A stretch of DNA of 57,539 nt from Candidatus Scalinduaceae bacterium (GCA_046759445.1 JBHICG010000015.1:1-57539); one strand, 5' to 3'. Positions 23,872 to 40,678 are shown, counted from the first letter of the stretch. The notes: generated by a model not told the origin, from the letters alone. Numbers and translations: made by a program.

Positions 23872-24223
23872 GAGACAAAACCCCCTTTCCTTTCACTGAA
23901 TCAGGAAATTTGTACTAATCATAAACTGTACCAACCAGGGTTTTTTTAACTAACCTTGTTAGTTTCTATTCCTTTTACTTTATGCTTATATTTATACATA
24001 GAATGAGTGTATGTTGTCAAATAAAATATGTATGCATTTTCAGTAATAAAAAACTTTTTTGGAAGTTTTATAACTTGCTTATAAAATACAACTTAGAAAA
24101 CTAAGTAGAAAATAAAAGTTAATGTAATCATCTGCTCTTTTTCAGGATATTTCATGTTGACATAAGAGATCAAGTTATTAGTATTAAGTCGTCTATAATT
24201 GGCATTGGAGAAAGACCTGTCTC

Positions 24224-26002
24224 ATGAATTTTAAAAAGACGTATCTTCTTATTACAATAAGTTGCCTTTTTATGACAACTCTGGCCTTTGCCTCTAGAGG
24301 GTTAGAAGTTGTCTCTGTTAGAGATAGCGCAGGCAAACAAGTAGGTTTGTATAAAGAGAGCCACGCTCTCGTGATAGGAGCAGGTAATTATACAAGCGGC
24401 TGGCCTAAGCTGACAGGGATTAAGAAAGATGTCCGGTTGGTTCACAAGGTTTTGGAAGAACACGGGTTTAATGTGATAACGGTGAATGACCCTGAAAAAG
24501 AACAATTAAGAAATGCATTTGATGATTTTATCAACAAATATGGACAAAAGCTGGAAAACAGGCTTTTGTTCTATTTTGCTGGGCATGGTTATACGAAAAA
24601 AATGTCTTATGGAGAAGAGATGGGTTACATAGTTCCTGTCAATGCACCTAATCCCGAAAATGACCCCAATGGTTTTTTAGCTAAGGCGATGGATATGCAT
24701 ATGATTGAAGTATTTGCCAAACGTATCCAATCCAAACATGTTATATTCTTATTCGATAGTTGTTTTTCCGGTTCTTTATTTGCTCTTTCACGGGCGATTC
24801 CAGGAAACATTTCATATAATACATTAAAACCAATACGTCAGTTTATCACAGCGGGAAATGCAGATGAGGAGATGTCGTCTGATGAGAGTGTATTTACACA
24901 ACAGTTTATAGCTGCGTTAGAGGGAGAGGGGGATGTAAATGAAGATGGTTATGTGACAGGCACAGAGTTAGGTGAATTTCTTCAAGATAAAGCAATTAAT
25001 ACAAAGGGGGAGAAACACCCTCAATATGGCAAAATACGTAATCCTAATTTAGATAAAGGGGATTTTGTATTTGTGATAAGGGATCGCGTTGAGAAATCAC
25101 CTGAACAAGATATTCATCAAGCTCCGGACATAGTAGAGAATAATGATAATTTCGAGAAGATTACCAAGGAAGTGGAGGCCCCAAAGAGGAATTGGAATGA
25201 TTGGCAAGAAACTATGACATTTTGGTATTCCCAAAACAATGAATTGGATAAAGGCACTGCGCTTAAACCATCGGAGAAAGTACAAATGTGGAAAAATTAT
25301 TTGAGTAGATATTCTGCTGATAATCCACTTAGCACAGATGACCAGATGATGCGTAGATATGCAGTGGAGAGAATAGAATATTGGAAACACAATAAGAACC
25401 CCGCTCCTATAAAAAAACAATCTGTAATCATCCAGAATCAAGTAAGAAATGAACAAAAACACATAAAAAAACCTGGCTCAAAACTACGTTTATGGTACAA
25501 GCCTTTATCGGTAGATGAAGTACAGGCTATGCCAAATATTTCAATACGTAAAATGAAAAGATGGGGATTTTATGGCCATAGTACAATCAAACACAACTAT
25601 GAATTGGTAGAAGACGATGGTGACAAAGTAGTAATAGATCATGCTACAGGGCTGATGTGGCACCAATCTGGCTCAAAGGGACTTTTGGATTGGGATGAGG
25701 CAAATGAGTGGATAAAAAGATTAAATCTCAATAATTATGCGGGTTATAGTGACTGGCGACTTCCAACTTTGGAAGAGGCTGTGTCACTATTAGAATCTAG
25801 CAAGGAGAAAGGCAGATATATAGATCCAATTTTTCATGGTAGGCAAAAATATATATGGACAGGTGATGAAATAAATATTAATGCTGCAGCCGCATGGTAC
25901 GTTAACTATAGCAAAGGTCACGCTAACTGGGCACACATGGACGGTACTAACGGGTTCTTTTTTGCTCGCCCGGTCCGCTTATGGAATGATACGGCCCAGT
26001 GA
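24224..26002 (+). CDS. Secreted caspase-family (peptidase C14) protein with C-terminal DUF1566/Lcl domain
   Basis: FYFAGHG and FDSCFSG catalytic His/Cys; VIDHATGLMW...GYSDWRLPTLEE DUF1566 motif. Confidence 0.88.
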   Translation: MNFKKTYLLITISCLFMTTLAFASRGLEVVSVRDSAGKQVGLYKESHALVIGAGNYTSGWPKLTGIKKDVRLVHKVLEEHGFNVITVNDPEKEQLRNAFDDFINKYGQKLENRLLFYFAGHGYTKKMSYGEEMGYIVPVNAPNPENDPNGFLAKAMDMHMIEVFAKRIQSKHVIFLFDSCFSGSLFALSRAIPGNISYNTLKPIRQFITAGNADEEMSSDESVFTQQFIAALEGEGDVNEDGYVTGTELGEFLQDKAINTKGEKHPQYGKIRNPNLDKGDFVFVIRDRVEKSPEQDIHQAPDIVENNDNFEKITKEVEAPKRNWNDWQETMTFWYSQNNELDKGTALKPSEKVQMWKNYLSRYSADNPLSTDDQMMRRYAVERIEYWKHNKNPAPIKKQSVIIQNQVRNEQKHIKKPGSKLRLWYKPLSVDEVQAMPNISIRKMKRWGFYGHSTIKHNYELVEDDGDKVVIDHATGLMWHQSGSKGLLDWDEANEWIKRLNLNNYAGYSDWRLPTLEEAVSLLESSKEKGRYIDPIFHGRQKYIWTGDEININAAAAWYVNYSKGHANWAHMDGTNGFFFARPVRLWNDTAQ

Positions 26003-26249
26003 GTCCTGAATTACAGTTACGTATACATATTACTAATAAGGCACTCTACTTTACACCAAACCAAATCTCACCCGTTATATCTCTGTATCCTGATATTTAT
26101 TCTTCCATCCGCAATATACTAAAACAATTCGCTGTAATTCTCTATAGCAAAGGCAAGAAACTCTGGGCCTTGAATTTCATCGGTGAGTATCTGCTTTTCT
26201 ATCTTATAGGAGGTCTTAGCGGCTATTTCACCTTTATTAAATTTTTCTA

Positions 26250-26312
26250 GGTCAATAAAAGAAGTAAGATAAATAGAAAAATAAGACAACTATTGGATGA
26301 TGACACGATTGG
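26250..26312. repeat. 63-bp perfect direct repeat, right copy
   Basis: Identical to 15553-15615. Confidence 0.92.
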
Positions 26313-26387
26313 CAAGTATGGTGATAAGATATATGGTATAACCTGAATCTTGCACAAAAAGTAACAAATCACCTATTCCCCCTTTCC

Positions 26388-26585
26388 AGGCTGTGTCACA
26401 ATTGTGAAAACACGTAATACGTCGTTGCAATTCTGCAACAGCAGAATTGCTTAGGTGATTCTACTCGTCGAGTAGAATCACACCTGAACCAGATCCTGAA
26501 TTTAATTCAGAATCTAATGATTTCAATAACTTAAAAACCTATAAGATCCCGAAACAAGTTCGGGATGACAATTATGACACAGCCT
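26388..26585. mobile_element. MITE-like element (18-bp TIR) nested inside a TCCCCCTTT/AAAGGGGGA palindrome
   Basis: aggctgtgtcacaattgt ... acaattatgacacagcct (1 mismatch); internal hairpins such as atcccgaaacaagttcgggat. Confidence 0.65.
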
Positions 26586-26722
26586 CTAAAGGGGGATTTG
26601 ATTTTAAACATATTGTTTTTTTAAGCTTGATTTTGCACTTTTATAAATTTACTATTTGATGTGCAGGAAATCGCAAACCGTAACCATGTTCTTTTTTTAT
26701 AACATATTTTTAGGAGATTATT

Positions 26723-27058
26723 ATGAGAATTTCTGTTAAATCCTTTGTAATAGCAATAACTATTCTTTTTTTATTCATAGGATACCAATCACAGCAAAGA
26801 GTGGAAAGCCGTGAATCTCACCAACATGTTTGCGTTGCGTGTGAAAAGGGACAAGCTGGTGAGACGGTTTGGTGTGATAGTTGCAATGCCGGCTATATTG
26901 ATGGAAATATGATAAAATGTAAAAGCTGTTTTGATGGTAAGGCTGGAAAAGTAGTTTGGTGTGACTCTTGTAATGTTGGTTATACAAATAAATCGAAAAT
27001 TACTTGCAAAGATTGCTTTGACAAAGGGACGATTTGCGAAAAATGTCAAAAGAAATAA
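26723..27058 (+). CDS. Secreted small protein with six CxxC motifs (internal duplication)
   Basis: Signal peptide; CVAC, WCDSC x2, CKSC, CKDC, CEKC; AGGAG RBS. Confidence 0.75.
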   Translation: MRISVKSFVIAITILFLFIGYQSQQRVESRESHQHVCVACEKGQAGETVWCDSCNAGYIDGNMIKCKSCFDGKAGKVVWCDSCNVGYTNKSKITCKDCFDKGTICEKCQKK

Positions 27059-27259
27059 CCAGGCTGATATAGGAATCCTTATCGCTTAAAATCCTATTCC
27101 CCTTTTTTACTGTATAAAACCAAAAGGCATTGTTGTGTCAATTAGATGCAACAATGCCTTTTTTGTTGATTTTAGTTTCCAGCCTCACTAATATAAACAT
27201 CAGAATTTCAACAGTCTACGTGTCATACCTTACAGACATATACTCTGTCAAATGATGGA
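27033..27259. repeat. ~225-bp diverged direct repeat, copy 1 (3' end of Cys-rich gene + terminator + promoter)
   Basis: Aligns to 29332-29558 at an offset of about 2300. Confidence 0.88.
27122..27164 (+). terminator. Intrinsic terminator hairpin
   Basis: aaaaggcattgttg-13-caacaatgcctttttt. Confidence 0.75.
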
Positions 27260-27347
27260 AGGGTAAGATTTTTCACATAATTAATGATTTAGATGCGATC
27301 TTGTAAAGCTAAGTCAATTAAATAGATATGGTGCCCCGATTTTCTCG

Positions 27348-27476
27348 GGCGGCGTATTGGGAACTGCGAAATTTGAAGGCAACCTTGGACCATTTATGCA
27401 AATTCTCAAATTGGGTGAATATATCCATTTGGGTAAGGGAACGAGTTTTGGTTTGGGGAAATATGAGATTCTGTAA
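27348..27476 (+). pseudogene. cas6: cas6 3'-end remnant 1
   Basis: GGVLGTAKFEGNLGPFMQILKLGEYIHLGKGTSFGLGKYEIL*; 32/42 identical to the intact Cas6 C-terminus. Confidence 0.88.
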
Positions 27477-27559
27477 ATTGTGTAAAATCTAAGGAATGTA
27501 TTGTTGCCACGAACTAGACTATAAATCGAAACTGTGAAGAAACCTCTATCATACAACTT

Positions 27560-28096
27560 TTGATTTACAGGGATTATGTATGGGAGAAAACATTGCTTAA
27601 ATTTGAACAGTTATTTTCCGCATTAAATAAGAAGAAAGTTAGGTATTTAGTTGTTGGAGGGATTGCGGTAAATCTCTATGGTATAGAAAGGGCAACAGCC
27701 GATATTGACCTTGTGGTGGATTTGGAGGAAAGTAACCTTCAGAAATTTATCAAGGCTATAAAAGATCTCAATTTTAAGCCAAAGATTCCTGTAAGTCTCG
27801 ATGATTTTACTGAAAGAGAGAAGAGAGAAGAATGGATCAGAGAAAAGGGGATGATGGTTTTTAGTCTTTTTGATCCGCGAAATCCATACTTTCTTCTGGA
27901 TGTATTTGTAATAGAGCCATTTGATTTTAACAGGGTATATGAGGCAAAGAGAGAGATGAAGTCTGGAAAAGTAAAAATTCCAGTAATTTCTCTAGGGCAT
28001 CTTGTTGAAATGAAAGAAAAGACCGGCAGGCCACAGGATATCTCTGATGTGTTTTATTTGAAAAAAGTAATGGGGGAATGGCAAAATGAAAAGTGA
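27560..28096 (+). CDS. Nucleotidyltransferase-family protein (DUF6036/AbiEii-like), probable start ~27593
   Basis: YLVVGGIAVNLYGIERATADIDL; C-terminal LVEMKEKTGRPQDISDV. Confidence 0.8.
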   Translation: MIYRDYVWEKTLLKFEQLFSALNKKKVRYLVVGGIAVNLYGIERATADIDLVVDLEESNLQKFIKAIKDLNFKPKIPVSLDDFTEREKREEWIREKGMMVFSLFDPRNPYFLLDVFVIEPFDFNRVYEAKREMKSGKVKIPVISLGHLVEMKEKTGRPQDISDVFYLKKVMGEWQNEK

Positions 28097-28250
28097 TCCT
28101 TTATTGTATTACAAAACTAAAGCTGAAATAGATGCATACAGAAAAAAAACTGTAAGAGAAAAACTCACGTGGCTTGAGGCGCAGATGGAGTTCTTTTACA
28201 AAGCAATGTCAGAAAAGGCTAAGAGGATAAGGGAGAGGCTTTTGTCATGA
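28086..28250 (+). CDS. 54-aa helical partner of the nucleotidyltransferase (putative toxin-antitoxin partner)
   Basis: MKSDPLLYYKTKAEIDAYRKKTVREKLTWLEAQMEFFYKAMSEKAKRIRERLLS; overlaps the upstream gene, GGGGA RBS; below the ORF-track cutoff. Confidence 0.65.
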   Translation: MKSDPLLYYKTKAEIDAYRKKTVREKLTWLEAQMEFFYKAMSEKAKRIRERLLS

Positions 28251-28511
28251 GGCTTGTCCGCTGTTTATGACTGATTACCCTCTAACAAGAGGGGTTTTGG
28301 GATGTGAATTCTTCCTTCTAGAAAGAGGGGCTGTTCTAGGTGGAACAGCTAAGCAATTCAAAAATTGCCGGATTAAGGGGTGTGTGTTTACAGACATCAA
28401 CACCGTTCACTGACACAGACACTGTAAAAACGGAGTTTAAATATGGATGAGAAACAGAAAAAAGAATACCAGACTGTAATTTTAATGGTATTTTTGCATG
28501 ATATTAAAAAT

Positions 28512-28676
28512 TCTGCCAGTCAAAAGCAGAGGGTGACGATGGGAGGATTCATTGGCAAAGCCGTTTTTGAAGGAGATATTGAAGGGTTTATGACCCTGAT
28601 AGCTCTGGGCGAATATGTACATGTGGGTAAAGGAACATCATTTGGGCTTGGGAAATATGTGATTCGTGGTACGTAG
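28512..28676 (+). pseudogene. cas6: cas6 3'-end remnant 2 (C-terminal part of ORF 28443-28676)
   Basis: SASQKQRVTMGGFIG...LGEYVHVGKGTSFGLGKY matches the Cas6 G-rich loop; more diverged than remnant 1. Confidence 0.85.
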
Positions 28677-28727
28677 AGAATGATGAATTAACAAAGTAAG
28701 CATTTCTCACAAAGAAGGTTGAATACA

Positions 28728-29243
28728 ATGAGTAAATTTATTGCGGTAAAAGAGGAAAATATTGCCTTACATATTCACTTTATCAGAGGTGAAAGTGTGA
28801 TGCTTGATTATGATCTTGCAATGATATACGGTGTAGAGACCAGGGCATTGAAACAAGCCGTGAAAAGAAATATGAAAAGATTTCCTGATGATTTCATGTT
28901 TGTTTTAGCAAACGATGAGGTTAATGCGCTGGTGTCACAAAATGTGATACCATCCAAAAGCCATCTCGGCGGTGCATTGCCTATGGCTTTTACCGAACAG
29001 GGAGTTGCCATGCTTTCCGGCATATTGAATAGCGAGAGGGCTATTGAGGCAAATATCGTCATTATGCGAACCTTTGTTCAGATAAGAAGATTGATGAGCA
29101 CGCATAAGGCGCTGGCAAAAAAGATTGAGGCCCTGGAAAAGAAATATGACGAAAGATTTAAGATAGTTTTTGAGGCTATTAAACAACTCATAAAACAGGA
29201 AAAAGAAACGGGCAGTAAAATAGGATTTAAAACTGGAAAGTAG
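28728..29243 (+). CDS. ORF6N (KilA-N-like) DNA-binding domain protein
   Basis: IRGESVMLDYDLAMIYGVETRALKQAVKRNMKRFPDDFMF...AFTEQGVAMLS...KIGF. Confidence 0.88.
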   Translation: MSKFIAVKEENIALHIHFIRGESVMLDYDLAMIYGVETRALKQAVKRNMKRFPDDFMFVLANDEVNALVSQNVIPSKSHLGGALPMAFTEQGVAMLSGILNSERAIEANIVIMRTFVQIRRLMSTHKALAKKIEALEKKYDERFKIVFEAIKQLIKQEKETGSKIGFKTGK

Positions 29244-29265
29244 AGGGGCATAAACCGTCGTGATC

Positions 29266-29326
29266 GTTTAAACCCCTTGATGAATTAGGGACAGAAAAGA
29301 GAATGAGTAATTAACAATGATGAATG
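29266..29326 (+). repeat. Orphan degenerate CRISPR terminal repeat + trailer remnant
   Basis: ccttgatgaattagggacagaaaa...taattaacaatgatgaa resembles the array end cctgattgaaaagggacggaaaa-taattaacaatgatgaa (34763-34802). Confidence 0.55.
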
Positions 29327-29331
29327 AGGAT

Positions 29332-29558
29332 TTTGTGAAACATGTAAAAAGAAATAACCAGGCTGATATAGGAATCCTTATCGCTTAAAATCCTATTTCC
29401 TTTTTTTTACTGTATAAAACCAAAAGGCATTATTGCATCTGATTGACACAATAATGCCTTTTTTGTTGATTTTAGTTTCCAGCCTCACTAATATAAACAT
29501 CAGAAGTTCAACAATCTACGTGTCATGCCATACAAACACAACGCCATCAGATGATGGA
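29332..29558. repeat. ~225-bp diverged direct repeat, copy 2
   Basis: Includes FCETCKKK* remnant of the Cys-rich gene, terminator 29422-29464 and promoter 29466-29494. Confidence 0.88.
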
Positions 29559-29816
29559 TATGCTTTCATAAGATATAAAATTAATTCTACATTGTTATGT
29601 AGAAAATAAAACTATTACTCTCTCTTGTGCAGATCTTTCTGTCTGTCTCAAAGGATTTCTTTTTTTGGGATAGACAACCTAATTTATAAATTACGAATAA
29701 TATTCCTATAATATCTAAAAATTAATTTATGTTTATTTCATGATAACTAGTCGAATTTCAGATTTCATTTTAAGGAATTTACCCTTTACCATGAGAGTAT
29801 GATATAACACTCAACG

Positions 29817-30800
29817 GTGCTGAAGGGTGTAATATTTTTACTGAAAATGCTTAACAATTTCACATTTGCAAAGTTTAGATTTACTTTAAAGGCAATGGAA
29901 GAAATCCTATTCCCCTCTTACAAGGGAGCTGTATTCAGGGGTGGCTTTGGATATACCTTTAAAAAAGTTGTATGCATTCAACGTGGAAAGAAAGAGTGTT
30001 CAGAATGTATTCTGCACAATAAATGCGTTTACAGTTACATCTTTGAGACAGCTCCACCTGAAGATACAAAGGTACTAAAATTGTACAAAACAGTACCACA
30101 TCCTTTTGTCATTGAACCACCATTGAGTGATGACAGGGTAACCAAAAAAGATGAAAGAATCTCATTCAATCTAATCTTAATTGGTAAGGCAGTTGATTAC
30201 CTACCATACTTTATATTTACGTTTACCGAATTGGGTAAACAGGGAATCGGTAAGAATCGAAGTAAATTTACTTTAGAGAAGGTTGAAAGTCTGGATATAA
30301 ATAGTGAGAGTAAGATTATTTATGAGTACAACACCGATATGCTTCAAAACAATTATTCTTTATTGGAGGCTTCACAGTTAAATCATACAGAATCCAAAAA
30401 AGATAGTAGCCAGGTTGAGTTAAGATTTTTAACCCCATTTCGGGTTCGGTTTGATGGGAAGATAACTGATAATATTGAATTTCATGTAATGTTTAGAAAT
30501 CTCCTTCGCAGAGTATCATCGCTATCATATTTTCACTGTGGTAAGGAGTTAGAATGTGACTTCAAATCATATATTGAAGAAGCAAAGAAAATTAAAACTA
30601 TATCTAATGATTTACAGTGGTTTGATTGGGAGCGCTATTCCACCAGACAGAAGCAGAGGATGAATCTAGGCGGAGTTCTAGGAACTACCAAATTTGGAGG
30701 CAACCTAGAACCATTTTTACAGTTTCTTAGATTAGGTGAGCATATTCATGTGGGTAAAGGGACGAGTTTTGGCCTGGGGAGATATAAAATTTTAAATTAG
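29817..30800 (+). CDS. cas6: CRISPR-associated endoribonuclease Cas6 (probable start ATG 29847)
   Basis: YKGAVFRGGFG, CxxC..C.Y.YIFE, PHPFVIEPP, FLTPFR, WFDWERYS, GKGTSFGLG. Confidence 0.95.
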   Translation: MLKGVIFLLKMLNNFTFAKFRFTLKAMEEILFPSYKGAVFRGGFGYTFKKVVCIQRGKKECSECILHNKCVYSYIFETAPPEDTKVLKLYKTVPHPFVIEPPLSDDRVTKKDERISFNLILIGKAVDYLPYFIFTFTELGKQGIGKNRSKFTLEKVESLDINSESKIIYEYNTDMLQNNYSLLEASQLNHTESKKDSSQVELRFLTPFRVRFDGKITDNIEFHVMFRNLLRRVSSLSYFHCGKELECDFKSYIEEAKKIKTISNDLQWFDWERYSTRQKQRMNLGGVLGTTKFGGNLEPFLQFLRLGEHIHVGKGTSFGLGRYKILN

Positions 30801-30830
30801 AATAAAACTTACAAATAGGAAAAATAAAAT

Positions 30831-32663
30831 ATGACAAAGGAATTAATTCCAGAACTACATGATGTTTTGAAGCTCACAACACTAAAACATAACTTTTCTG
30901 ATTTCGACAAGTTTTTATCATATTCACCCAAAACACGAACTTGGGATGGCGTTTTACAACATCACTGTAGTAGTAAAAAAGAAGAATTTCCTGCCTATCC
31001 AACTGATATTGAAACCTTCCTGCTACATTTGGCAGATGGTATGGCGGCAGGTTTTTCAAGACATAATCAAAGTTATGAAGGAGAGTCTTCTTTTATATTA
31101 CATAAATTGTGGAACCCATCTTCTGTAAATAAAGATACGCGCTTGGACAAAGAGGAGGAAATTATTAAATTATTAAGTTTTTATGCAAAAGACCCCACCT
31201 TTAATGAATTAATTGCAAAATACGGTAACGTTATTAGGTCAAGACCAGAGGATGCTCATGCTGGAATGAATATCACAAGTTTACATTCTCACCTGGTGCT
31301 GACAGGGAAATTTTATAGGTTATTTAAAAATTCATCTTTTTGGCCTATTGATGCACGTGAGGTAGAACCTGATGTTAAAAAGATTTCTGCACTAAGAGAT
31401 AACAAGGTAAAGACTTGGCAGATTTATCTAGCACGTTGCAGATTTCACTTTAATCAAAAACCATTTAGAGTGCGAGATATGAATGTTTTCGAACTACTCC
31501 AAGAGAATATGTCAAAGATTCAAAAGGAGTTCTACGACAATATTCTTTTTGCAAGTAGTGATGAGATATTGATTTGTTATGATGACCCCTCTGTTCTGCA
31601 AAGAATATGCTCTATTGCAAGAGATAGTAGTCTATGGACAACAACCATTTGGACAAAAAAGACAATTGAACAAATGAATGGTGAAATCAAACAGAAACGT
31701 AAACCAGACCCAAGGTTGTTAACCTTACATAAAGTGGAACATATTTATGAAAAATTACCTGCTCACATAAAGCCACCAATCTGTGAAATCTGTCAAATGG
31801 CACCTGCAGATAAGGTTTGGCCGACTGATTATCTTTTGCAATACGAAGAGGAGATTGACGATGATGAGGCCGCAATAGAGAATTTGTGCACAACATGTTT
31901 TTCCATCCGCAACCGTCCTTCGAGATTAAAGAAGTTAAAAAGATGGACTGAAACAGAAAATACATCAATTATTTGGATTAAAATAAATCTTGACTATGAA
32001 CTGTTGACGAACACCCTGGAAGAGCTTTATTCAAACTATCTGTCAAAAACTAATCCTAAGGCTGGTGATAGTAGAGCAGAGGTAAGGTTCTCTTTAATAT
32101 TTGAGTTTCAACATGATTATAATGAATTCTTGGTGAATTTTCGAAATAGTTTATTAAAAACATTTAGTGGGGAAAATGTAGAAATAGTTTTGGACGAAAT
32201 GTACTGTTTAAAAGCACAAAAAACAAACGACGTTTTTAAAATTTTGGACTTAATTAATATACATTTAGACAGTTTCTTTCCAGAGTTTAAAAAGTTGATG
32301 GATGGACCAATAAAGTTTTCTATTGTATCATGTAATTCAAAATTTCCTTTTTTTGAAATATGGAAAAATATTGAAGCACAAATATCTAACTTACAGATAT
32401 CACTTATTGGTCGTGGGAAGATAGAAACATCTCTTATGTATCTAGACCAGTTACTTCTTGCCAGTGAGAAGTCATACAGAAAGAGTGCCCTTTTTAAGCT
32501 AGCTCAGATTTCCAAACTATCTGAGAAATTGGCTGAATTAAAATTTAATGATAGCTCAGAAAAAGCGGACTTCAAAAGTTACGAAGTATTAAAAAGAAAT
32601 TTGTTACCTTTGGGTATGGACTTTGAAGGAATTCTAACCTTTGCTAAACTGGTCGAAGATTAA
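30831..32663 (+). CDS. cas10: Compact Cas10 large subunit with N-terminal HD domain and degenerate Palm2 (no GGDD); type III-F-like
   Basis: LHDVLK...QHH...LADGMAAG (HD); TSLHSHL..T; Zn finger CEIC...CTTC; Palm positions read ASSDE and VLDE instead of GGDD. Confidence 0.8.
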   Translation: MTKELIPELHDVLKLTTLKHNFSDFDKFLSYSPKTRTWDGVLQHHCSSKKEEFPAYPTDIETFLLHLADGMAAGFSRHNQSYEGESSFILHKLWNPSSVNKDTRLDKEEEIIKLLSFYAKDPTFNELIAKYGNVIRSRPEDAHAGMNITSLHSHLVLTGKFYRLFKNSSFWPIDAREVEPDVKKISALRDNKVKTWQIYLARCRFHFNQKPFRVRDMNVFELLQENMSKIQKEFYDNILFASSDEILICYDDPSVLQRICSIARDSSLWTTTIWTKKTIEQMNGEIKQKRKPDPRLLTLHKVEHIYEKLPAHIKPPICEICQMAPADKVWPTDYLLQYEEEIDDDEAAIENLCTTCFSIRNRPSRLKKLKRWTETENTSIIWIKINLDYELLTNTLEELYSNYLSKTNPKAGDSRAEVRFSLIFEFQHDYNEFLVNFRNSLLKTFSGENVEIVLDEMYCLKAQKTNDVFKILDLINIHLDSFFPEFKKLMDGPIKFSIVSCNSKFPFFEIWKNIEAQISNLQISLIGRGKIETSLMYLDQLLLASEKSYRKSALFKLAQISKLSEKLAELKFNDSSEKADFKSYEVLKRNLLPLGMDFEGILTFAKLVED

Positions 32664-32665
32664 AA

Positions 32666-33274
32666 ATGCCATTTATTGAATACAAACTTACATCAGATAT
32701 ACTTTACCTGGGAGATAGGTCAAAAGGAGGTATTTTTAAGCCGTGTGTCTACACAATTCCATTTAGTCAGATTAGTGGAGCTCTCAATTCCAAGTTTGGA
32801 TTAAAAGAAGTTAAGGCCGTAGGGTATTTGCTAAACAATTCGGGCTTTAATAGGAGAGATTATTTGATTTACTCGCCACGTGATAGAAACTCTGGTACAA
32901 GTAAAGTACCTCTTCAGGTAGAATTTATAACTAATGTTATGGGAAAAGTCTTTATTCTGAAAAACAATGAGACAAAAAAGTTCCCTGAAAGATTTGAAAT
33001 TTCGATGGGCGGTCTGAGGTCAAAGGGATTTGGCAGATGTTATATGGCAAAGCAACAAATGTTGCAGGAAAGTGAAGTGGCAAAAGGCGAGCTAAATGTT
33101 AGGATTCCATTAGAAGAGCAAAGTACATTTAACATAAGGAAGGTAGAAAGGCCAGTTTATGGATATCTCTTTAAACCTATACCAAATACATTTACAGGTA
33201 ATTATGTCTTGTCAGTTTTTGAAGGAAGTGAGGTTATAGCACCTAAGTTTCTTGTTAAGGATGAGAGGAGATAG
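32666..33274 (+). CDS. cas5: Cas5-group RAMP (Csm4-like)
   Basis: N-terminal strand + IPFSQISGAL helix; G-rich loop MGGLRSKGFG; position between cas10 and the small subunit. Confidence 0.72.
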   Translation: MPFIEYKLTSDILYLGDRSKGGIFKPCVYTIPFSQISGALNSKFGLKEVKAVGYLLNNSGFNRRDYLIYSPRDRNSGTSKVPLQVEFITNVMGKVFILKNNETKKFPERFEISMGGLRSKGFGRCYMAKQQMLQESEVAKGELNVRIPLEEQSTFNIRKVERPVYGYLFKPIPNTFTGNYVLSVFEGSEVIAPKFLVKDERR

Positions 33275-33277
33275 AAG

Positions 33278-33574
33278 ATGGATACTATTCAAAGGTTGAT
33301 GAAAGAAATAAAAGCTGATAGAGAGGTGCAAAACTGCAGATATTTTACTTCAAATTTCTTGAACAATGTTGCTGATGTCTTTGAAAAGCACGGCTTTGGA
33401 GTCACAAAGGTCTTTTTAATAGAAAAGAAAGTCCGCCGTGAACTTAAGTGGCAAGCTACAGCCTTATTGTCAGTTTTAAATATACTCGATGGGAGTGAAG
33501 AAGTAAAACAGAAAAGAAGTATTGGACGCTGTATTATAAAGGCTCTGGAAACTATTAAATCTAAGGAGGTGTAA
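33278..33574 (+). CDS. Putative small subunit (Cas11-like), 98 aa helical
   Basis: Size, basic helical composition and position between cas5 and cas7; translationally coupled. Confidence 0.6.
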   Translation: MDTIQRLMKEIKADREVQNCRYFTSNFLNNVADVFEKHGFGVTKVFLIEKKVRRELKWQATALLSVLNILDGSEEVKQKRSIGRCIIKALETIKSKEV

Positions 33575-33575
33575 T

Positions 33576-34361
33576 ATGTTAAAGGAAAAAACTTTTGAAA
33601 TAACTATTACAGCAAAGGAACCTTTAAGAATAGGAGGTAAAGAAGACCCTCTTTCGGGGGCAGATAACCCTGTAACTCATGTAGGAGGGAAGCTGGTAAT
33701 ACCAGGTTCGTCGCTAAAGGGCGCATTACGGACGGAGATTGAAAGGTTTTTCATTGATTCATATTATTCAAATGGTAAGTGGAAAGAGGGTTTTGAGTAC
33801 TTCAAGCCCTGCATTCCATCTGATAAGTTATCAGCTGATGAAGAACGATTAGTTGAAGCAGGAAAATACCGAGACCAGGGAGGTAATTGCAGATATCCAT
33901 GTAACGACAAAAAATGTGGTAATAACAAAAGCCATTCAATATGTCCTGTTTGTTATTTGTTAGGGTCTATGGGGTTAAATGGATTTGTTAAAGTTCCATT
34001 CTTGTACGCAGAAACTTCTATAAATGAATTGTATTCTTCTAGGATAGATAGGGCTACCAAAACAATTTCTCGTGGAAGTAATAGACCGTATGAGCTTGTA
34101 CCAGATGGTTCTGTTTTTAATGGGACATTGACAGTTTTGTTAGAGGACACAATTCTGAACTGGAAGTTAGGAGAATCAAGAAATCTTGGCGAAGCTAGAA
34201 CACTAGGTGATAAGTGGTTGGAAGACAATAAGGGAAAGGTAAACAACAAAAAACAGGAAGAGTTTATAAGCATGTATATTTTGGAAAGATTAAAGTCAAT
34301 CAATGTACTTGGTGGTTACAAATCAAAAGGGTTTGGTTTGGTACAAATTTCAGCCTCATAA
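33576..34361 (+). CDS. cas7: Cas7-group RAMP (Csm3-like)
   Basis: PLRIGG...GADNPV (catalytic-Asp position), IPGSSLKGALR, CPVCYLLGS, LGGYKSKGFG. Confidence 0.92.
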   Translation: MLKEKTFEITITAKEPLRIGGKEDPLSGADNPVTHVGGKLVIPGSSLKGALRTEIERFFIDSYYSNGKWKEGFEYFKPCIPSDKLSADEERLVEAGKYRDQGGNCRYPCNDKKCGNNKSHSICPVCYLLGSMGLNGFVKVPFLYAETSINELYSSRIDRATKTISRGSNRPYELVPDGSVFNGTLTVLLEDTILNWKLGESRNLGEARTLGDKWLEDNKGKVNNKKQEEFISMYILERLKSINVLGGYKSKGFGLVQISAS

Positions 34362-34367
34362 AACATG

Positions 34368-34785
34368 CGCTAGAACATTGACCTGATTAAAAAGGGATTG
34401 CGACTCACCTGGTTAAATACAGGTGGAGACTTAGACATGGATTTGGGGTTTGAAAACGTGACCTGATTAAAAAGGGATTGCGACAATAGTTGTTTATTGT
34501 ACATGAGCGTTTCCACATCGGCAGTTTGAAAACGTGACCTGATTAAAAAGGGATTGCGACCAATACTCACAAGATTTTATAACTGGAGGCATAATAGGTT
34601 TGAAAACGTGACCTGATTAAAAAGGGATTGCGACGACAATATGACCCTACTGGGACATTTTCCATTCTCATGTTTGAAAACGTGACCTGATTAAAAAGGG
34701 ATTGAAACTTTTGTTATTTGGTATGTTCTTGACATAGTTAGTTGTAACTATGAGAACATCGACCTGATTGAAAAGGGACGGAAAA
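34368..34785 (+). CRISPR. CRISPR mini-array: 6 repeats of 37 nt (GTTTGAAAACGTGACCTGATTAAAAAGGGATTGCGAC) and 5 spacers (43, 39, 37, 37, 40 nt)
   Basis: Repeats at 34368, 34448, 34524, 34598, 34672, 34749; first and last degenerate; 3' ATTG(CG/AA)AC handle implies + orientation. Confidence 0.95.
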
Positions 34786-34913
34786 TAATTAACAATGATG
34801 AAATGATCAATTAAGAATTAAGAACGGAAGTAGTATGAATAGGAATTTTGGGCGAAAACAAGGTCATCCATGATAAGTAATGTCAAAGGGGAAATAGACA
34901 CAGAATTTAATAC

Positions 34914-34993
34914 AAATCAATCCTTGCTTAAGGAGCAAAATAATAAGTTAATTGAGAAACCGAATTATAAGTTAGTCGAAATCACAAAAAACC
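34914..34993. repeat. Intergenic module A, copy 1 (copies at 37336-37415 and partial 38608-38630)
   Basis: aaatcaatccttgcttaagg...aataataagttaattgagaaaccgaattataagttag...aatcacaaaaaacc. Confidence 0.85.
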
Positions 34994-35174
34994 TTCTCAC
35001 TATATTGCAGAAATGGTACAAAAATGTGGGAACGAAGAAAAAGTAAAATTAATCTTACAAGAACACTTGATATCGGGAAAAGCTTTTGAGTATATGAAAG
35101 AAGATGATTTTGATAACTTTATAGTTGAAAGAGAAAATACAATTAAACAACATATAAAAAATATATATTTATAA
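34986..35174 (+). pseudogene. 3'-end remnant resembling the C-terminus of DUF262-family (GmrSD-like) proteins
   Basis: KKPSHYIAEM...LQEHLI...EDDFDNFIVERENTIKQHIKNIYL*, no matching 5' part. Confidence 0.5.
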
Positions 35175-35447
35175 GATTCCAGCGAAATAAATTCCAATAA
35201 ACCAATAGATTATAATAGACACTTATTAAGGTTTGCCACTAACCTTGATTGTATTAAAAATAGAGAAGGTGATCGTTAAAAAAGTATTATGCCCGATCTA
35301 CGGTTTATATAAATAGTGTCCCTAATTATCGCTAATTATTGTCGAAGAAGTCAAAGTCCAAAAATTGCAATGAGCAGAAAACAAAATGAAACTTGATAAA
35401 TATTTTAACAACCTTATCCGAAGAGTATTTACAGGAAGAAATGTACT

Positions 35448-36059
35448 TTGAGATTTGAAGAATTTGAAGAACTGCATTACATAACACCGATTGAGAATAT
35501 GAAATCAATTTGTACCGTTGGAATCTTATCTCATCAAAAAGTCCAAAGAATTCAACATAAATCTGTTGCAATGAATAAAATTCAGCAGAGACGCAAAAAG
35601 ATTATTGTACCCGATAAAAAAGGTAATCGACCGCTTCATCAATATGTAAACCTCTATTTTCATGCAAGAAATCCAATGATGTTCAAAAGAAAGGACAGAC
35701 ATAAAGAATTATGTGTTGTAAGAATAAGTAAAGATATTTTAAAAGCTTCTGGGGTCGTTATTGCAGATGGGAATGCTTCAAGCGACTATGTTCGTTTCGC
35801 ACCTTCACCAAATGGTCTAAGAATGATAGATAAAGAACTCGTTTTTGCAAAATACTGGAACCATGCAGACCCAATAGAGAAATTCAGACATACTTTCATT
35901 AAATGTGCCGAGGTTTTAGTGCCGGACAAAGTACCAAAAGAATATCTACTTGGAGCTTATGTTTCATGTTCGGAAAGCAAAAAACAGCTTTATGATATTA
36001 TTGTTGCTATTAAAATAAATTTTGATATAAAAGTTGACCCTGACTTATTCTTTTTGTGA
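35448..36059 (+). CDS. darT: DarT DNA ADP-ribosyltransferase toxin (DUF4433)
   Basis: LHYITPIENMKSI...GILS, LHQYVNLYFHARNPMMF, ADGNASS, AEVLVP. Confidence 0.88.
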   Translation: MRFEEFEELHYITPIENMKSICTVGILSHQKVQRIQHKSVAMNKIQQRRKKIIVPDKKGNRPLHQYVNLYFHARNPMMFKRKDRHKELCVVRISKDILKASGVVIADGNASSDYVRFAPSPNGLRMIDKELVFAKYWNHADPIEKFRHTFIKCAEVLVPDKVPKEYLLGAYVSCSESKKQLYDIIVAIKINFDIKVDPDLFFL

Positions 36060-36069
36060 GAGGTTTAAA

Positions 36070-37191
36070 ATGATAAAAGTTTTAGTTGGTGATTTATTTC
36101 AATCAAAATGCCAAACCCATGTAAATACAGTTAACACAGTAGGAATAATGGGTAAAGGAGTAGCGCTAGAATTTAAAAAGCGTTTTCCTGAAATGTTTGA
36201 AGATTATAAAAAACGTTGTGACAAGGGATTAGTCAAGCTTGGTGAACCTTATTTGTATAAGAGACTTGTGCCACCTTGGATACTGAACTTTCCTACAAAA
36301 GAACATTGGCGCTCTGTATCTAAATTAACGGACATAATTCAAGGCTTGAAATACCTTGAGCAACATTATCAGGAATGGGGGATAATTTCTATAGCATTGC
36401 CTCCACTTGGATGTGGTCATGGACAACTTGAATGGAGGATTGTCGGGCCAACACTTTATAGACACATGAAGCGTCTTAATATTCCTGTAGAACTCTATGC
36501 CCCGCTTGGAACTTCTGCTGGAGAATTAACAGCAGAAGTTCTTTCTAAAGATGCAACACAATTAGTTGAAGCAGGGACTTTTGTAAACAATAAAATAGAA
36601 CCAGGTTTAATTGCGATTGTAGTAGTACTTTCAAGGATTGAAAGAGAACCTTATCATTGGCCTATTGGACGGACAATGTTCCAAAAGATTGCCTATTTTG
36701 CAACTGAACTTGGTTTGCGCACCGGACTAAAATATGTTCGGAGCAGCTTTGGCCCCTTTGACTCAAATTTAAAATCTAAAATAACTAAACTTGTTAATAA
36801 TGGTCTTATTAGAGAAGAAAAACTTGGAAGGATGTTCAGTGTTAAAATTGGGCCGACTTATAAAGACGCAATCAGAATTTACAAAAAAGAAATTGAAGAT
36901 GTCCAGCCAATCATTGAACAGTTAACAGACCTCTTTCTTAGAATGAATACCACTCATCAAGCTGAACTTGCAGCTACAGTTCATTTTGCAACACAGAACA
37001 TTCAAAAAGAATTTAAGAACAAACCATCAGAAGTAGATGTTCTGAAGGCAGTTATGGATTGGAAACGACGCAGACACCCTCCTCTTGTTAAAGTTGAAGT
37101 TGCACAAACAATCCGAAACCTTGCTTCATTAGGATTACTAGCAGTAAAACCGAGTAAGGACTTGCCTGTACATGATGAAGTTTCAGTTTAA
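36070..37191 (+). CDS. darG: DarG macrodomain antitoxin
   Basis: GDLFQS...VNTVNTVGIMGKGVALEFKKRFP, NFPTKEHWR, SIALPPLGCGHG; C-terminal QKIAYF...FGPF...ELAATVHF. Confidence 0.92.
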   Translation: MIKVLVGDLFQSKCQTHVNTVNTVGIMGKGVALEFKKRFPEMFEDYKKRCDKGLVKLGEPYLYKRLVPPWILNFPTKEHWRSVSKLTDIIQGLKYLEQHYQEWGIISIALPPLGCGHGQLEWRIVGPTLYRHMKRLNIPVELYAPLGTSAGELTAEVLSKDATQLVEAGTFVNNKIEPGLIAIVVVLSRIEREPYHWPIGRTMFQKIAYFATELGLRTGLKYVRSSFGPFDSNLKSKITKLVNNGLIREEKLGRMFSVKIGPTYKDAIRIYKKEIEDVQPIIEQLTDLFLRMNTTHQAELAATVHFATQNIQKEFKNKPSEVDVLKAVMDWKRRRHPPLVKVEVAQTIRNLASLGLLAVKPSKDLPVHDEVSV

Positions 37192-37256
37192 ATATGGATT
37201 CGACAAACACCCATCGGACTTGCAAGACACTCATTGACAAATGATTCAATCTCATC

Positions 37257-37324
37257 AGGCCCGTTTATGGCTGATATACTATCAGCGAGTGATCTTCGAT
37301 CAGGTTGCAGGGGCCATCTTTGAT
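37257..37324. repeat. Intergenic module B, structured 68-bp repeat (second copy 37874-37941)
   Basis: 3 differences in 68 nt; outer stem GGCCC/GGGCC with inner hairpins GCTGATA/TATCAGC and TGATC/GATCA. Confidence 0.85.
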
Positions 37325-37435
37325 AGAGTAAATATAAATCAATCCTTGCTTAAGGCGAAAAATAATAAGTTAATTGAGAAACCGAATTATAAGTTAGGCA
37401 TAATCACAAAAAACCAATAAGGAGAGGATGAAAAA

Positions 37436-37840
37436 ATGTCAGTACTGATTGAAGAACTTAAGAAGGACCATTCCGAAATCGTTGCCGTACTCAACGAAGT
37501 CAAAGAACTTGGTATTCTTTCAAAAGAAGGACAAGCCAAGCTCTTGTCTGCAAAAGAGCATTTGCTTACACATCTCAATAAGGAAGACGAGCAACTTTAT
37601 CCGCTTCTCAGAAAAAAAGCAGAAAAAAATAAGCAACTGAAGAATGCATTAGATTTATGCGCAATCGATATGGAGAATGTCTCAAGAGTTGTGCAAGGAT
37701 TCTTTGATAAATATTCTAGAGGAGTAATTCCAGACACTGAGCTTCAAAAAGAGTTTGAAAACCTTTTCGTAGCTCTTGGTAAAAGGATAAGTAACGAAGA
37801 AGACATTCTCTATGATGAGTATGAATGGGTGAATCAATAA
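37436..37840 (+). CDS. Hemerythrin-like (HHE) protein
   Basis: LKKDH...HLNKED..LYP...RISNEE..LY. Confidence 0.75.
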   Translation: MSVLIEELKKDHSEIVAVLNEVKELGILSKEGQAKLLSAKEHLLTHLNKEDEQLYPLLRKKAEKNKQLKNALDLCAIDMENVSRVVQGFFDKYSRGVIPDTELQKEFENLFVALGKRISNEEDILYDEYEWVNQ

Positions 37841-38029
37841 TATGTTGTGATATTGTCTTGCTTAACACCTATAAGGCCCGTTTATGGCTGATATACTATC
37901 AGCGAGTGATCTTAGATCAGGTTACAGGGGCTATCTTTGATGCGTAAGTATGACAGACCATTAAAAAAACACAGGGAGAAGGAATTGAAAGAAACTAGGA
38001 ATGAAGGGAAGGGTTTGTAGCAAAGATAT

Positions 38030-38560
38030 ATGCGGTATTCTGTAACTGAAGCAAGAGCAGTTATTGAACAATTAAGAAAATGTTCAATCAGCGATCTTGA
38101 TACGTTATTTAATGTAGGAACTTTGCCAATGTTTGAAGAACTTGAAGGTGAAACTGCAGGTGCTATCCTTGCTTTGAATCCAAGAAATCCCTGGTGGTTA
38201 ATGTGTATGATTAAAATTTTATTTAAAAGTCCATTGGGACAATGGACTGGCAAAAAGTTTCTTACTTCATTTGATAAAAGAAAGAATGGTTATGGCATTA
38301 ATTTGTTTAAAAGTAAATTTATACCCTGCCTTTTTAAGTTTGACACCTACATTAAAAATGCATACGTTGACGATAAACCTTGTCTTGCTTTAGATTACAG
38401 AGCGCATCATTCATTGATCTTTGGGTTGGTAGATGATGTAAGGAAAATCAAAGATGGACTAGTATTAGGACAAACGTATTATAAGTTTCCGTGGAGAAAG
38501 CAAATGTGTTTTGTAGGATACTTTGTTCTATGTGCCCTCAACAAAGACAAAATAATGTAA
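38030..38560 (+). CDS. Hypothetical protein
   Basis: 176-aa ORF with plausible composition (WTGKKF, LDY, DDVRKI..GLVLG). Confidence 0.6.
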   Translation: MRYSVTEARAVIEQLRKCSISDLDTLFNVGTLPMFEELEGETAGAILALNPRNPWWLMCMIKILFKSPLGQWTGKKFLTSFDKRKNGYGINLFKSKFIPCLFKFDTYIKNAYVDDKPCLALDYRAHHSLIFGLVDDVRKIKDGLVLGQTYYKFPWRKQMCFVGYFVLCALNKDKIM

Positions 38561-38740
38561 ATAATAAAATAATAGTGACCCGCCAAACTAATCGTTGCGC
38601 TAGTCATAATATAAATCAATCCTTGCTTAAAAAGAAAAGTAGTGGTAAATATAAAAGCAATTAAAAGATTCTAATAAGAAAGAAAGAGGTTACGACTGTG
38701 AGGCGAGTGATGAAGGAGGAGAGACGAGAAAGGAGGGAAG

Positions 38741-39139
38741 ATGGACGAAGGAAAAGAAACGAGGAGGATAAACAGTGTGAGGGATTTAGAGGTGTATAAG
38801 TTGTCGTTTGAATCTGCAATGAAAATATTTGAGATATCGAAAAGTTTCCCTAAGGAGGAGATATATTCCTTAACCGACCAAATACGTAGATCGTCAAGAT
38901 CAGTATGTGTTAATCTTGCAGAAGGCTGGAGAAAACGTAGATATAAGGCTGTATTCGTTAATAAATTAACAGATGCAGAACAAGAAGCGTCAGAAACTCA
39001 AACGTGGTTGGAGTTTGCATTGAAGTGCAAATATATTAACAATGAAACATATAAAATATTGGACGAAAAGTATGAGCATATTTTTGCAAAGCTTATTACG
39101 ATGGAACGAAAAGCAGACTCGTTCTGTAAAGTTAGCTGA
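38741..39139 (+). CDS. Four-helix-bundle protein (23S rRNA IVP family)
   Basis: RDLEVYK...FPKEEIYSLTDQIRRSSRSVCVNLAEG...EASETQTWL; flanked by purine-rich and pyrimidine-rich short repeats. Confidence 0.92.
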   Translation: MDEGKETRRINSVRDLEVYKLSFESAMKIFEISKSFPKEEIYSLTDQIRRSSRSVCVNLAEGWRKRRYKAVFVNKLTDAEQEASETQTWLEFALKCKYINNETYKILDEKYEHIFAKLITMERKADSFCKVS

Positions 39140-39474
39140 TTTCTCATCTATCGTCTGTCGTCTATCGTGTCTGAAGGTACGGTGCAAAAGATGACCCGAA
39201 TGAATAAGGAGCTTTTACAGTGGCCAGTGCCCTGGTGACGGGGGTCAGTGTTAGGGATCAGTGGTCAGTTTCCAGATGACAGTGGATTAAGGTCGAATAA
39301 TTGAATGTGTATGGATTAAAAATGTGGATAAGAAAAAGTAAGATTGCTGATATATGGAAACTGGCAACTGGAATCTGAGAAGGTAGCGATCTAATGTTGA
39401 ATATCGGGATAGGTTTTTAAGAACTTATAGAGAGGTAAAAGAAAGAAGGAGGGGACTGTGGGGAGAAATGATTT

Positions 39475-39672
39475 ATGAAAATAGGCGAGTTCTTTGTTAA
39501 AAATAATTATGTTACACAAGAGGAGGTGAATGAGGCATTGGAATTGCAAAAAAGCAATAAAGGTAAATATATAGGAGAGATTCTTGTTGAGATGAAGGTA
39601 ATTACAAGAGAGCAGTTAATTGAATATGTTTGTGAATATGATGATTATAAGAAGGAAGAAAAGGGGTTGTAG
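39475..39672 (+). CDS. Stand-alone MshEN-like (T2SSE N-terminal) small protein
   Basis: KIGEFFVKNNYVTQEEVNEALELQ + YIGEILVEMKVITREQL. Confidence 0.7.
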   Translation: MKIGEFFVKNNYVTQEEVNEALELQKSNKGKYIGEILVEMKVITREQLIEYVCEYDDYKKEEKGL

Positions 39673-39745
39673 TATATTTATTCTTTAATTATTGTATAGG
39701 TATTACTTCACCAAAACGAGTATTCATTTAAAAAGGAAGGTGTAT

Positions 39746-40231
39746 ATGGCTGGATTTTTAGATAAATTTAGAAAAAATGTAGTTTCATCTGTATGGAAAG
39801 ACAAAGAAGATGTGCCTAAGGTGAAAGATATAGATGATAAAATTGCTTTGGGGGTATTACTATGGATTGTAGCTGAGGCTGATGAGAAGTTTCTAGCGAA
39901 AGAAGATGAGAAAATCAAAGAAATCCTTATTTTATATAGTAAAATTTCAAAGGAAGATATAGCGACTGTTTTGGCTTCAATCAAGGAAGCCGCGAGGGAA
40001 AGAATAGATTTGTATCGTTTTACTCATGAGGTAAGCGAGAATTTGCCTTATAACGTTAAGATATCAATTATAGAAATTCTTTTCCGTGTAGCGTGTTGTG
40101 ATAAAGAGTTGGATCATAAGGAGATCGAAATAATAAGGAAAATATCAGGCTTATTCCACATAGCGCATAAAGATTTTATTGATGCCAAAATAACGATTAA
40201 GAAAGAATTTGGCTTAGATACCTATAATTAA
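39746..40231 (+). CDS. TerB-family protein
   Basis: LLWIVAEAD...E...; DLYRFT; LFRVACCDKELDHKEIEIIRKISGLF; start ATG 39746 with AGGAAGG RBS. Confidence 0.8.
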   Translation: MAGFLDKFRKNVVSSVWKDKEDVPKVKDIDDKIALGVLLWIVAEADEKFLAKEDEKIKEILILYSKISKEDIATVLASIKEAARERIDLYRFTHEVSENLPYNVKISIIEILFRVACCDKELDHKEIEIIRKISGLFHIAHKDFIDAKITIKKEFGLDTYN

Positions 40232-40354
40232 AGAGGAGACATAAAGTTTAAAATTTGGACAGCGACCGTCAAAGGCAATTCCAAATCTTTGATTATGCCT
40301 GATTTATAATCAGGTTGAAATTTTGCTTTGCAAAATTACCTTAAATAGGGACAA

Positions 40355-40678
40355 ATGATTATGAAAAAAATGAAAATAAGCATTAGTTATACATTCTTAA
40401 TCTTACTGTTTTCTTATACTATCAATGCAGAGGAGAAGGATTATTGCAATGACCCTGATGTTAATGCTAAATGGGAGGCTTTAGTTGAACAGTATCCTGA
40501 TGATATGGGGTTGCATGCCTTGCACGCCTTAAGGCTTGGACTGTGTTTGAAAGTAGGACTAGGAGATATAAGCATAGATGAAGCCAAAGAAATATTTGGA
40601 AATGTAAGAAAGGCATTTATAGATAGAAAAGTGGACGACCTATTAGAGGAGTCTAACGAACAGGAAAAGGGGTTGTAG
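40355..40678 (+). CDS. Secreted hypothetical protein
   Basis: Signal peptide; YCND...WEAL...HALHALRLGLC. Confidence 0.65.
   Translation: MIMKKMKISISYTFLILLFSYTINAEEKDYCNDPDVNAKWEALVEQYPDDMGLHALHALRLGLCLKVGLGDISIDEAKEIFGNVRKAFIDRKVDDLLEESNEQEKGL

Follow-up and report, generated by a model that had tools for sequence, protein, structure and literature searches.

Subtype III-F has been catalogued among CRISPR-Cas systems since 2020, and no experimental study of it was found in the literature searched. The relevant part of Hoikka et al. (2024, PMC11229360) describes its members as having an HD domain, lacking the cyclase motif and carrying no effector for cyclic oligoadenylate (cOA). Type IV systems have been proposed to descend from III-F in the accessible part of Pittman et al. 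(2026, PMC13676074), where subtype IV-C is described as sensing double-stranded DNA (dsDNA) flanked by a protospacer-adjacent motif (PAM), with collateral cutting, dependent on HD, of single-stranded DNA (ssDNA) or RNA to follow. The present study concerned a stretch of 57,539 nt from a Candidatus Scalinduaceae bacterium (GCA_046759445.1 JBHICG010000015.1:1-57539), referred to as the window, to which all coordinates belong, and in particular a cas operon with a short CRISPR array at 29817 to 34785. To judge from its genes, it is near certain that this locus represents a complete and intact member of subtype III-F, and so a system of known kind, not a new one.

Membership of III-F rests on profile matches. 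All four effector genes were hit over their full length by subtype profiles (PADLOC, expectation values, E, from 3e-95 to 4e-27), in line with the III-F match claimed in the original prediction, which had been made from this sequence alone. The features of the subtype found here are the profile and fold of Cas10f, the HD motifs, the absence of GGDD, and a single Cas7 accompanied by Cas5 and a separate Cas11f. Assignment to III-F and not to III-H follows from cas11 being a separate gene and from Cas7 keeping its aspartate, the III-H traits being those given in the sections of Makarova et al. (2025, PMC12669027) that deal with that subtype. The parts of the locus, with protein lengths in amino acids (aa), are as follows.

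29817..30800, + strand: cas6, endoribonuclease for processing of CRISPR RNA (crRNA); 327 aa; Pfam CRISPR_Cas6 3.7e-19; PADLOC Cas6 PDLC01477 1.4e-114
30831..32663, + strand: cas10f, large subunit with HD domain, zinc finger and two Palm-like domains without GGDD; 610 aa; PADLOC PDLC01558 (Cas10a|Cas10f) 3.3e-95 over residues 3-594
32666..33274, + strand: cas5 (III-F; Csm4-like); 202 aa; PADLOC Cas5_IIIf 1.7e-58
33278..33574, + strand: cas11f, small subunit; 98 aa; PADLOC Cas11f 4e-27
33576..34361, + strand: cas7 (III-F; Csm3-like); 261 aa; PADLOC Cas7_IIIf 1.6e-61; Pfam RAMPs 4.4e-12
34368..34785, + strand: CRISPR array of six repeats (R1 and R6 degenerate) and five spacers; repeat search

The five open reading frames (ORFs) all lie on the + strand, separated by gaps of 30, 2, 3 and 1 nt, and the array begins 6 nt past the cas7 stop. 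The tightly coupled order first reported for this locus (cas6, proteins of 610, 202 and 98 aa, a Csm3-like RAMP, then the array) was recovered exactly. Translation of cas6 probably starts at the ATG at 29847, since homologues mostly align from residues 10-13. Pfam recognised just Cas6 and one RAMP protein in the operon, NCBIfam contributed little, and for cas11f neither gave a match. Genes for cas1, cas2, csm6 or csx1, already said to be absent from the window, were seen neither among its 44 ORFs with Pfam nor among six ORFs with PADLOC, and no CARF domain protein was seen in the window with these two resources. No terminator-like site was detected on the + strand between 29558 and 35500, a promoter scan showed no enrichment (31 sites, compared with 27.0 +/- 5.2 in shuffled sequences), and no Rfam family matched within 24000-42000 at E values up to 0.1. 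The G+C content of the window is 33-48%. DNA of the locus is contained in hydrothermal-vent and marine-sediment metagenome runs, and no RNA run was among the sequencing runs listed for it.

Among solved structures, the sequence profile of Cas10f reached only the HD region of Csm1 (E 0.0098), and a comparison of folds was therefore needed. An AlphaFold2 model of the large subunit alone, built on an alignment of 39 sequences, was confident (predicted local distance difference test, pLDDT, 89.5; predicted template modelling score, pTM, 0.90). Its best 50 Foldseek matches in the PDB were all Csm1, Cas10 or Cmr2 chains (best E 2e-11; query-normalised template modelling score, TM, 0.35-0.57), and no Cas8 or Cas10d chain was among these 50. 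The original prediction had named structure prediction as a check, and a missing Cas10 Palm fold or grouping with Cas10d or Cas8 as outcomes that would undo it; the fold predicted for the large subunit is that of Cas10, and the prediction was not undone. The Csm1-type HD motif set and the zinc finger, first read from this one protein, proved to be invariant in all 39 aligned homologues, at residues H10, D11, K14, H20, H44, H45, D69 and H154 of the former and C318, C321, C353 and C356 of the latter. The stated lack of GGDD likewise extends to the family, as GGD[DE] occurs in 0 of 39 homologues and the window protein is without any GG dipeptide. At the Palm2 hairpin of the model, the site of GGDD, the sequence is L-D-E-M, and one acidic residue is kept across the family (D in 29 of 39, E in 4). 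Palm1 (residues 213-245; 31467-31565) is conserved to an unexpected degree: R213 and D216 are invariant, E245, at the hairpin, is present in 38 of 39 homologues and N218 is near-invariant. R213, D216 and E245 occupy the usual acidic positions of Palm domains, and all four residues stand where such domains bind metal.

With PADLOC, Cas7 matched the Cas7_IIIf profile at 1.6e-61, against 4e-20 for the best of the Csm3 models and 3.4e-07 for the Cas7 model of type IV. Its residue D30, within GADNPV, aligned with the aspartate of GIDNPV in Thermococcus onnurineus Csm3 (chains 6iqw_C and 6muu_C), which we take to be the catalytic RNase residue, so that the aspartate claimed for the Csm3 RNase position is indeed in place. 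In 32 Cas7f sequences, from the window and related loci, this column holds D 14 times, E 6, H 3, N 1 and K 8. The four cysteines of an insertion (C79, C105, C123 and C126) are conserved in 30-32 of the 32.

The array was missed by Tandem Repeats Finder and was detected by a dedicated repeat search. Four 37-nt repeats, at 34448, 34524, 34598 and 34672, are identical save for the end of the last (R5). The first repeat (R1, 34368-34404) keeps the 3' 25 nt, which are identical across R1 to R4; its 5' 12 nt differ from those of R2-R5 and resemble R6 (34749-34785), a degenerate terminal repeat. The 3' ends read ATTGCGAC in R1-R4 and ATTGAAAC in R5, the spacers S1-S5 measure 43, 39, 37, 37 and 40 nt, and folding of the repeat is weak (-5.3 kcal/mol, z -1.1). 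Related repeats stand downstream of cas7 in three III-F loci that bear cas6 (L012, L013 and L019). Searched as a whole against 50,697 phage records, the array gave chance-level matches only (best E 0.1); among 72,556 plasmid records the sole match was one of its repeat to an array on a Methylocaldum plasmid. The five spacers matched the host genome over no more than 20 nt, all with E values of at least 0.086, and when 92 genomes from the order of the host were searched with the array, all matches were repeat-periodic. The plasmid in question, from Methylocaldum szegediense (NZ_OX458334.1, 25.7 kb; L053:9001-9242), has at 13 places a repeat about 76% identical to that of the window, and the annotation of the 18 kb shown names no cas gene.

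Metagenome runs gave a view of array dynamics. In run X2, which belongs to the study of the likely source, the locus was unchanged up to 34477, and in runs X3 and X4, which are metagenomes of two other studies, variants 92-95% identical along the cas genes were present. Their only indels are a 3-nt insertion at 33776 and a compensated -1/+1 pair at 29916-29918, the latter described as upstream of the probable start of cas6. In run X3, one contig (record 12, depth 5.8) continues from the end of cas7 through 47 other letters to a repeat, an S5-like spacer and an R6-like repeat, and this lineage (95% identical, one contig) is without S1-S4. The difference could have arisen by gain at the cas7-proximal end, by deletion, or by exchange between arrays. 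A different first spacer in run X4 was also considered and dropped, as the locus contig of that run ends at R1 and the loose end is part of another contig.

The host assembly (3.62 Mb, 97% complete) has one Cas1, which sits on contig C8 in a complete I-B locus made up of cas7b, cas5b, cas3, cas6b, cas1, cas2, cas4 and an array of 29 repeats. The description of the system as adaptation-less is therefore right for the III-F locus, which has no adaptation genes, and wrong for the genome. The repeats of the I-B and III-F arrays are both 37 nt long, agree at 23 of 37 positions and have a common ATTG..AC end. The window cas7 was the only RAMP-family match in the genome, and no Csx1 match was obtained genome-wide, in a search whose control matched in 1 of 14 control genomes.

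From these data it is likely that the locus encodes a type III-like interference complex that is guided by crRNA, senses transcripts, cuts RNA with Cas7 and has an active HD domain, without making cOA. The RNA-sensing part of this model is held to be reasonably probable, in view of the precedent set by IV-C and of a Cas7 aspartate that is only patchily conserved. The individual steps are modelled on what is known of the type III-A mechanism. Operon and array would probably be transcribed together, and Cas6 would cut 8 nt before the 3' end of each repeat, giving crRNAs with a AUUGCGAC tag (AUUGAAAC on the last). One Cas10f and one Cas5 would cap this tag, with several copies each of Cas7 and Cas11f lining the guide. 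On pairing with an invader transcript, D30 of Cas7 would cut the RNA at 6-nt steps, and the same pairing would switch on the HD domain of Cas10f, leading to degradation of ssDNA (possibly also RNA) near the transcribing invader. No cOA would be made, because Palm2 is without GGDD and neither a CARF nor a SAVED effector was found. As the locus has no adaptation genes of its own, new spacers would have to be supplied by the I-B Cas1-Cas2-Cas4 of contig C8 or by recombination between arrays.

Several observations weigh against this model or parts of it. The Cas7 aspartate is replaced by H, N or K in 12 of 32 sequences, with H in L012, one of the three loci that have the cas6 family and repeat type of the window; since the residue is not universal, RNA cutting may be dispensable. 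A table in one review (PMC8036902) enters the III-F target as 'DNA?', and the proposed descendant of III-F, IV-C, senses dsDNA through a PAM, according to the accessible part of PMC13676074. No protospacer was found, so that target type and strand bias cannot be checked. In Palm1, the invariant R213 and D216 and the near-invariant E245 are reasons why this domain may have a residual nucleotide-binding or catalytic role, and genome-wide searches for Csm6 and SAVED proteins were uninformative, their controls matching nowhere. Finally, the array abuts cas7 without a leader and R1 deviates in its 5' 12 nt, which speaks against current spacer acquisition.

The review entry and the replaced aspartates would suit a complex that works like IV-C, in which PAM-adjacent dsDNA is recognised, an R-loop forms and the HD domain then cleaves ssDNA or RNA collaterally, with little or no sensing of transcripts. 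Such a mechanism has been shown for IV-C, an origin of type IV from III-F has been proposed, and the architecture of Cas10f resembles that of Cas10IVc (these three points from the accessible part of PMC13676074). The window Cas7, however, keeps the aspartate and scores far better with the III-F and Csm3 models than with that of type IV, and the best 50 structural matches of the large subunit were all to RNA-sensing Csm or Cmr complexes, in a PDB copy that extends to April 2026 and may lack an IV-C structure; nor were protospacers found from which a PAM could be derived. We regard this alternative as unlikely. An intermediate between types III and IV, in which D30 of Cas7 cuts RNA and PAM-flanked dsDNA also switches on the HD domain, is quite unlikely on present analysis. 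If such a dual mode were true, the compact and self-contained locus would offer a direct handle on the transition from RNA-sensing to DNA-sensing CRISPR systems.

It is very improbable that the locus is an inactive leftover, that is, a stranded effector operon with a frozen and decaying mini-array. There are only five spacers, and none has a match in the phage, plasmid, host-genome or relatives' sequences that were searched; the repeats at either end are degenerate, leader and local adaptation genes are absent, and two cas6 relics and a duplicated flank upstream (described below) record past breakage at the site. However, the five frames are intact, all catalytic and metal-binding residues conserved in the family are present, the variants in other samples, at 92-95% identity, keep the frames open, and R1 to R4 are identical over the 3' 25 nt, so that tags can still be made. 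That the array still acquires spacers, served in trans by Cas1-Cas2-Cas4 of the I-B locus on contig C8, is unlikely. The only Cas1 of the genome resides there, the two repeats agree in length, end and 23 of 37 positions, and the X3 variant with its single S5-like spacer means that S1-S4 differ between lineages at the cas7-proximal end. New repeats are copies of the leader-proximal repeat, yet R1 has a deviant 5' 12 nt like that of R6 and no leader precedes it; and the X3 difference, seen in one contig at depth 5.8, would equally be explained by deletion or array exchange. The type III-like interference complex remains the preferred reading.

Cas10f belongs to a family of some size. A word-index search returned 177 homologues, the best 62% identical, and none of the 120 listed bears a functional name. 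An exhaustive search of 1.84 billion proteins gave 238 representatives at E <=0.001, and 127 at E <=1e-30, with named members spread over many bacterial and archaeal phyla. Near the host it is rare, being found in 1 of 40 relatives (same genus 0 of 2, same family 0 of 24) and, in a sample of the phylum, in 2 of 400 genomes, and a metagenome scan for close relatives produced only 4 loci, with a best Cas10 identity of 54%. The possibility, raised at first, that the host group has a new lineage here holds only in part: Cas10f is rare among relatives and its best match is 62% identical, yet it falls within a known family that makes up about 240 clusters at 50% identity. In a sample of 42 related loci from species genomes the order cas10-cas5-(cas11)-cas7 recurs, with cas5 after cas10 in 34, Cas7f in 32 and cas11 in 18. 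The cas6 family of the window stands upstream in 7 of the 42, an array of at least three repeats lies in the flanks of 15, and at least one adaptation gene in the flanks of 16. The closest effector genes fetched were those of L081 (Cas10 54% and Cas7 73% identical), with no cas6 in 1.4 kb upstream. In that locus, which comes from a metagenome (L081:2349-4967), an insertion of some 2.6 kb interrupts cas10f near residue 305-309, and cas5, cas11 and cas7 are intact. Five other loci, from Methanoperedens, Bathyarchaeota and uncultured archaea (L025, L029, L043, L047 and L049), have cas5 and cas11f on one frame of about 310-350 codons, and the two genes appear to be fused there.

The cas6 gene has a history of its own. 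Three further features upstream of the operon bear on it.

27333..27473, + strand: relic 1, the 3' end of another cas6 allele, about 47 codons and a stop; tblastn
28443..28676, + strand: relic 2, an ORF of 77 aa with a diverged cas6 C-terminus; Pfam CRISPR_Cas6 1.2e-12
29332..29558, + strand: upstream flank of cas6, with an 88% identical duplicate at 27033-27259 ahead of relic 1

The Cas6 family of the window is common in the host order: of 91 other genomes it was found in 46, and the repeat type in 35. The closest Cas6 proteins (77%, 73%, 73% and 70% identical) come from same-family genomes where Cas10f was not found, and close homologues head other type III loci: III-D with CARF proteins (G007), III-B Cmr (G457), III-A Csm (G037) and one with a Csm1-like gene (G005). 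III-F-linked Cas6 proteins from elsewhere are 37-52% identical. In a maximum-likelihood tree of 15 rows (L019 and L036, where cas6 is split, were left out), the window protein fell in a clade of seven, supported at 100/98, with proteins of the host order that are not linked to III-F, and the III-F-linked rows fell outside. The region upstream of cas6 is 82% and 70% identical to the surroundings of cas6 in two same-family genomes. Relic 1 is 76% identical over 42 aa to the intact Cas6 (tblastn) and 88% identical to Cas6 of a same-family genome (G017), and relic 2 is 55% identical over 51 aa, with its best match (59%) in the III-D-linked Cas6 of G007. A degenerate cas10 start as part of relic 1, hinted at by DNA alignment, was dropped when tblastn found nothing.

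It appears from these comparisons that cas6 and the repeat belong to the host lineage, and that a rare III-F effector cassette was swapped in behind them. The patterns of Cas6 similarity, the two 3' relics and the duplicated flank together suggest that type III cassettes were replaced here more than once, with the breaks falling close to the junction of cas6 and cas10.

Further features were noted around the locus. Between the cas6 relics lie a DUF6036/AbiEii-type nucleotidyltransferase gene with a small overlapping ORF (27560-28250) and an ORF6N-domain gene (28719-29243), the second between 20-nt direct repeats (28675-28694 and 29298-29317, 90% identical); both have the look of small cassettes that entered a CRISPR locus in decay. 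Right after the array, at 35448-37191, come two overlapping genes, one for a DarT-like ssDNA ADP-ribosyltransferase (Pfam DarT 4.6e-43) and one for a macro-domain protein (6.4e-15), a putative toxin-antitoxin pair of DarT/DarG type. Direct repeats of 85 nt (34909-34993 and 37331-37415, 93% identical) enclose the pair, and in metagenome contigs the depth is very high over the stretch that contains the first of them. A hemerythrin-domain gene (37436-37840) is set, cassette-like, between 71-nt direct repeats (37254-37324 and 37871-37941, 94% identical), in a variable region without synteny to same-genus genomes. At 26493-26587 an element some 95 nt long is structured (-16.6 kcal/mol, z -2.4) and has no Rfam match; it is one which occurs on both strands, on many contigs and in dozens of copies in two same-genus genomes, and which looks like a dispersed repeat of the miniature inverted-repeat transposable element (MITE) or repetitive extragenic palindromic (REP) kind. 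Just upstream of this defence region are genes for an 1841-aa RHS-repeat protein (18346-23871, - strand) and for a protein of 592 aa (24224-26002) that has a caspase domain (Peptidase_C14) and, at its C-terminus, an Lcl domain.

These results matter in two respects. With about 5 kb of intact sequence and its own cas6 and array, the locus is a practical candidate for reconstitution, at a time when III-F is proposed, in the accessible part of PMC13676074, as a stepping stone from type III to type IV. In addition, one cas6 and repeat family in the host order serves III-A, III-B, III-D and here III-F cassettes, and the relics of cas6 3' ends suggest that such cassettes are exchanged at the cas6-cas10 junction.

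The relationship of the locus to described systems can be stated as follows. With the Csm complexes of III-A (PDB 6xn7, 6ifn, 6mur and 9g9a) it shares the fold of the large subunit (N-terminal HD, zinc finger and two Palm-like domains), a Csm3-like Cas7 with the aspartate and Cys-rich insertion of T. onnurineus Csm3, and a Cas6-type repeat with an 8-nt tag end. It differs from III-A in that the large subunit is without GGDD, is about 100-190 aa shorter than the matched Csm1 chains and is detectably similar to Csm1 in sequence just in the HD region (E 0.0098), and in having one Cas7 gene and neither Csm5 nor Csm6, whereas the Csm2-Csm5 set and Csm6 are features of III-A. The IV-C systems of Pyrococcus abyssi and Thermococcus onnurineus, as far as described in the accessible part of PMC13676074, are alike in their Cas10-like subunit with HD and zinc finger and no GGDD, and in having Cas5, Cas7 and Cas11. 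IV-C has, however, lost the RNase activity of Cas7 and senses PAM-flanked dsDNA (same part of PMC13676074), whereas the window Cas7 keeps the aspartate and matches type III profiles far above the type IV profile (1.6e-61 against 3.4e-07). III-H, distantly related to III-F according to the sections on it in PMC12669027, likewise has an inactivated Palm, a retained HD and no adaptation module, but there Cas11 is merged into Cas10 in place of its C-terminal domain, and Cas7 does not conserve its aspartates, unlike the separate cas11f and the D30 found here.

The closest correspondence is with the III-F reference, Tlet_0097-Tlet_0100 of Thermotoga lettingae, given in part of PMC8036902 with the same gene set and order (cas10f, cas5, cas11f and a single cas7), and likewise with HD present and GGDD absent; no cOA effector was seen in the window with Pfam or PADLOC. 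Most III-F loci are drawn without arrays in the Extended Data Fig. 2 to which the legend in PMC12669027 belongs, whereas the window locus has its own cas6 and array, the one respect in which it is unusual for III-F. No protein found exceeds 62% identity to its Cas10f. The gene set is that of the published III-F definition; what is new here is its presence in a genome that has a full I-B system on another contig, the rarity of Cas10f among relatives of the host, and the cas6 relics with their signs of cassette replacement.

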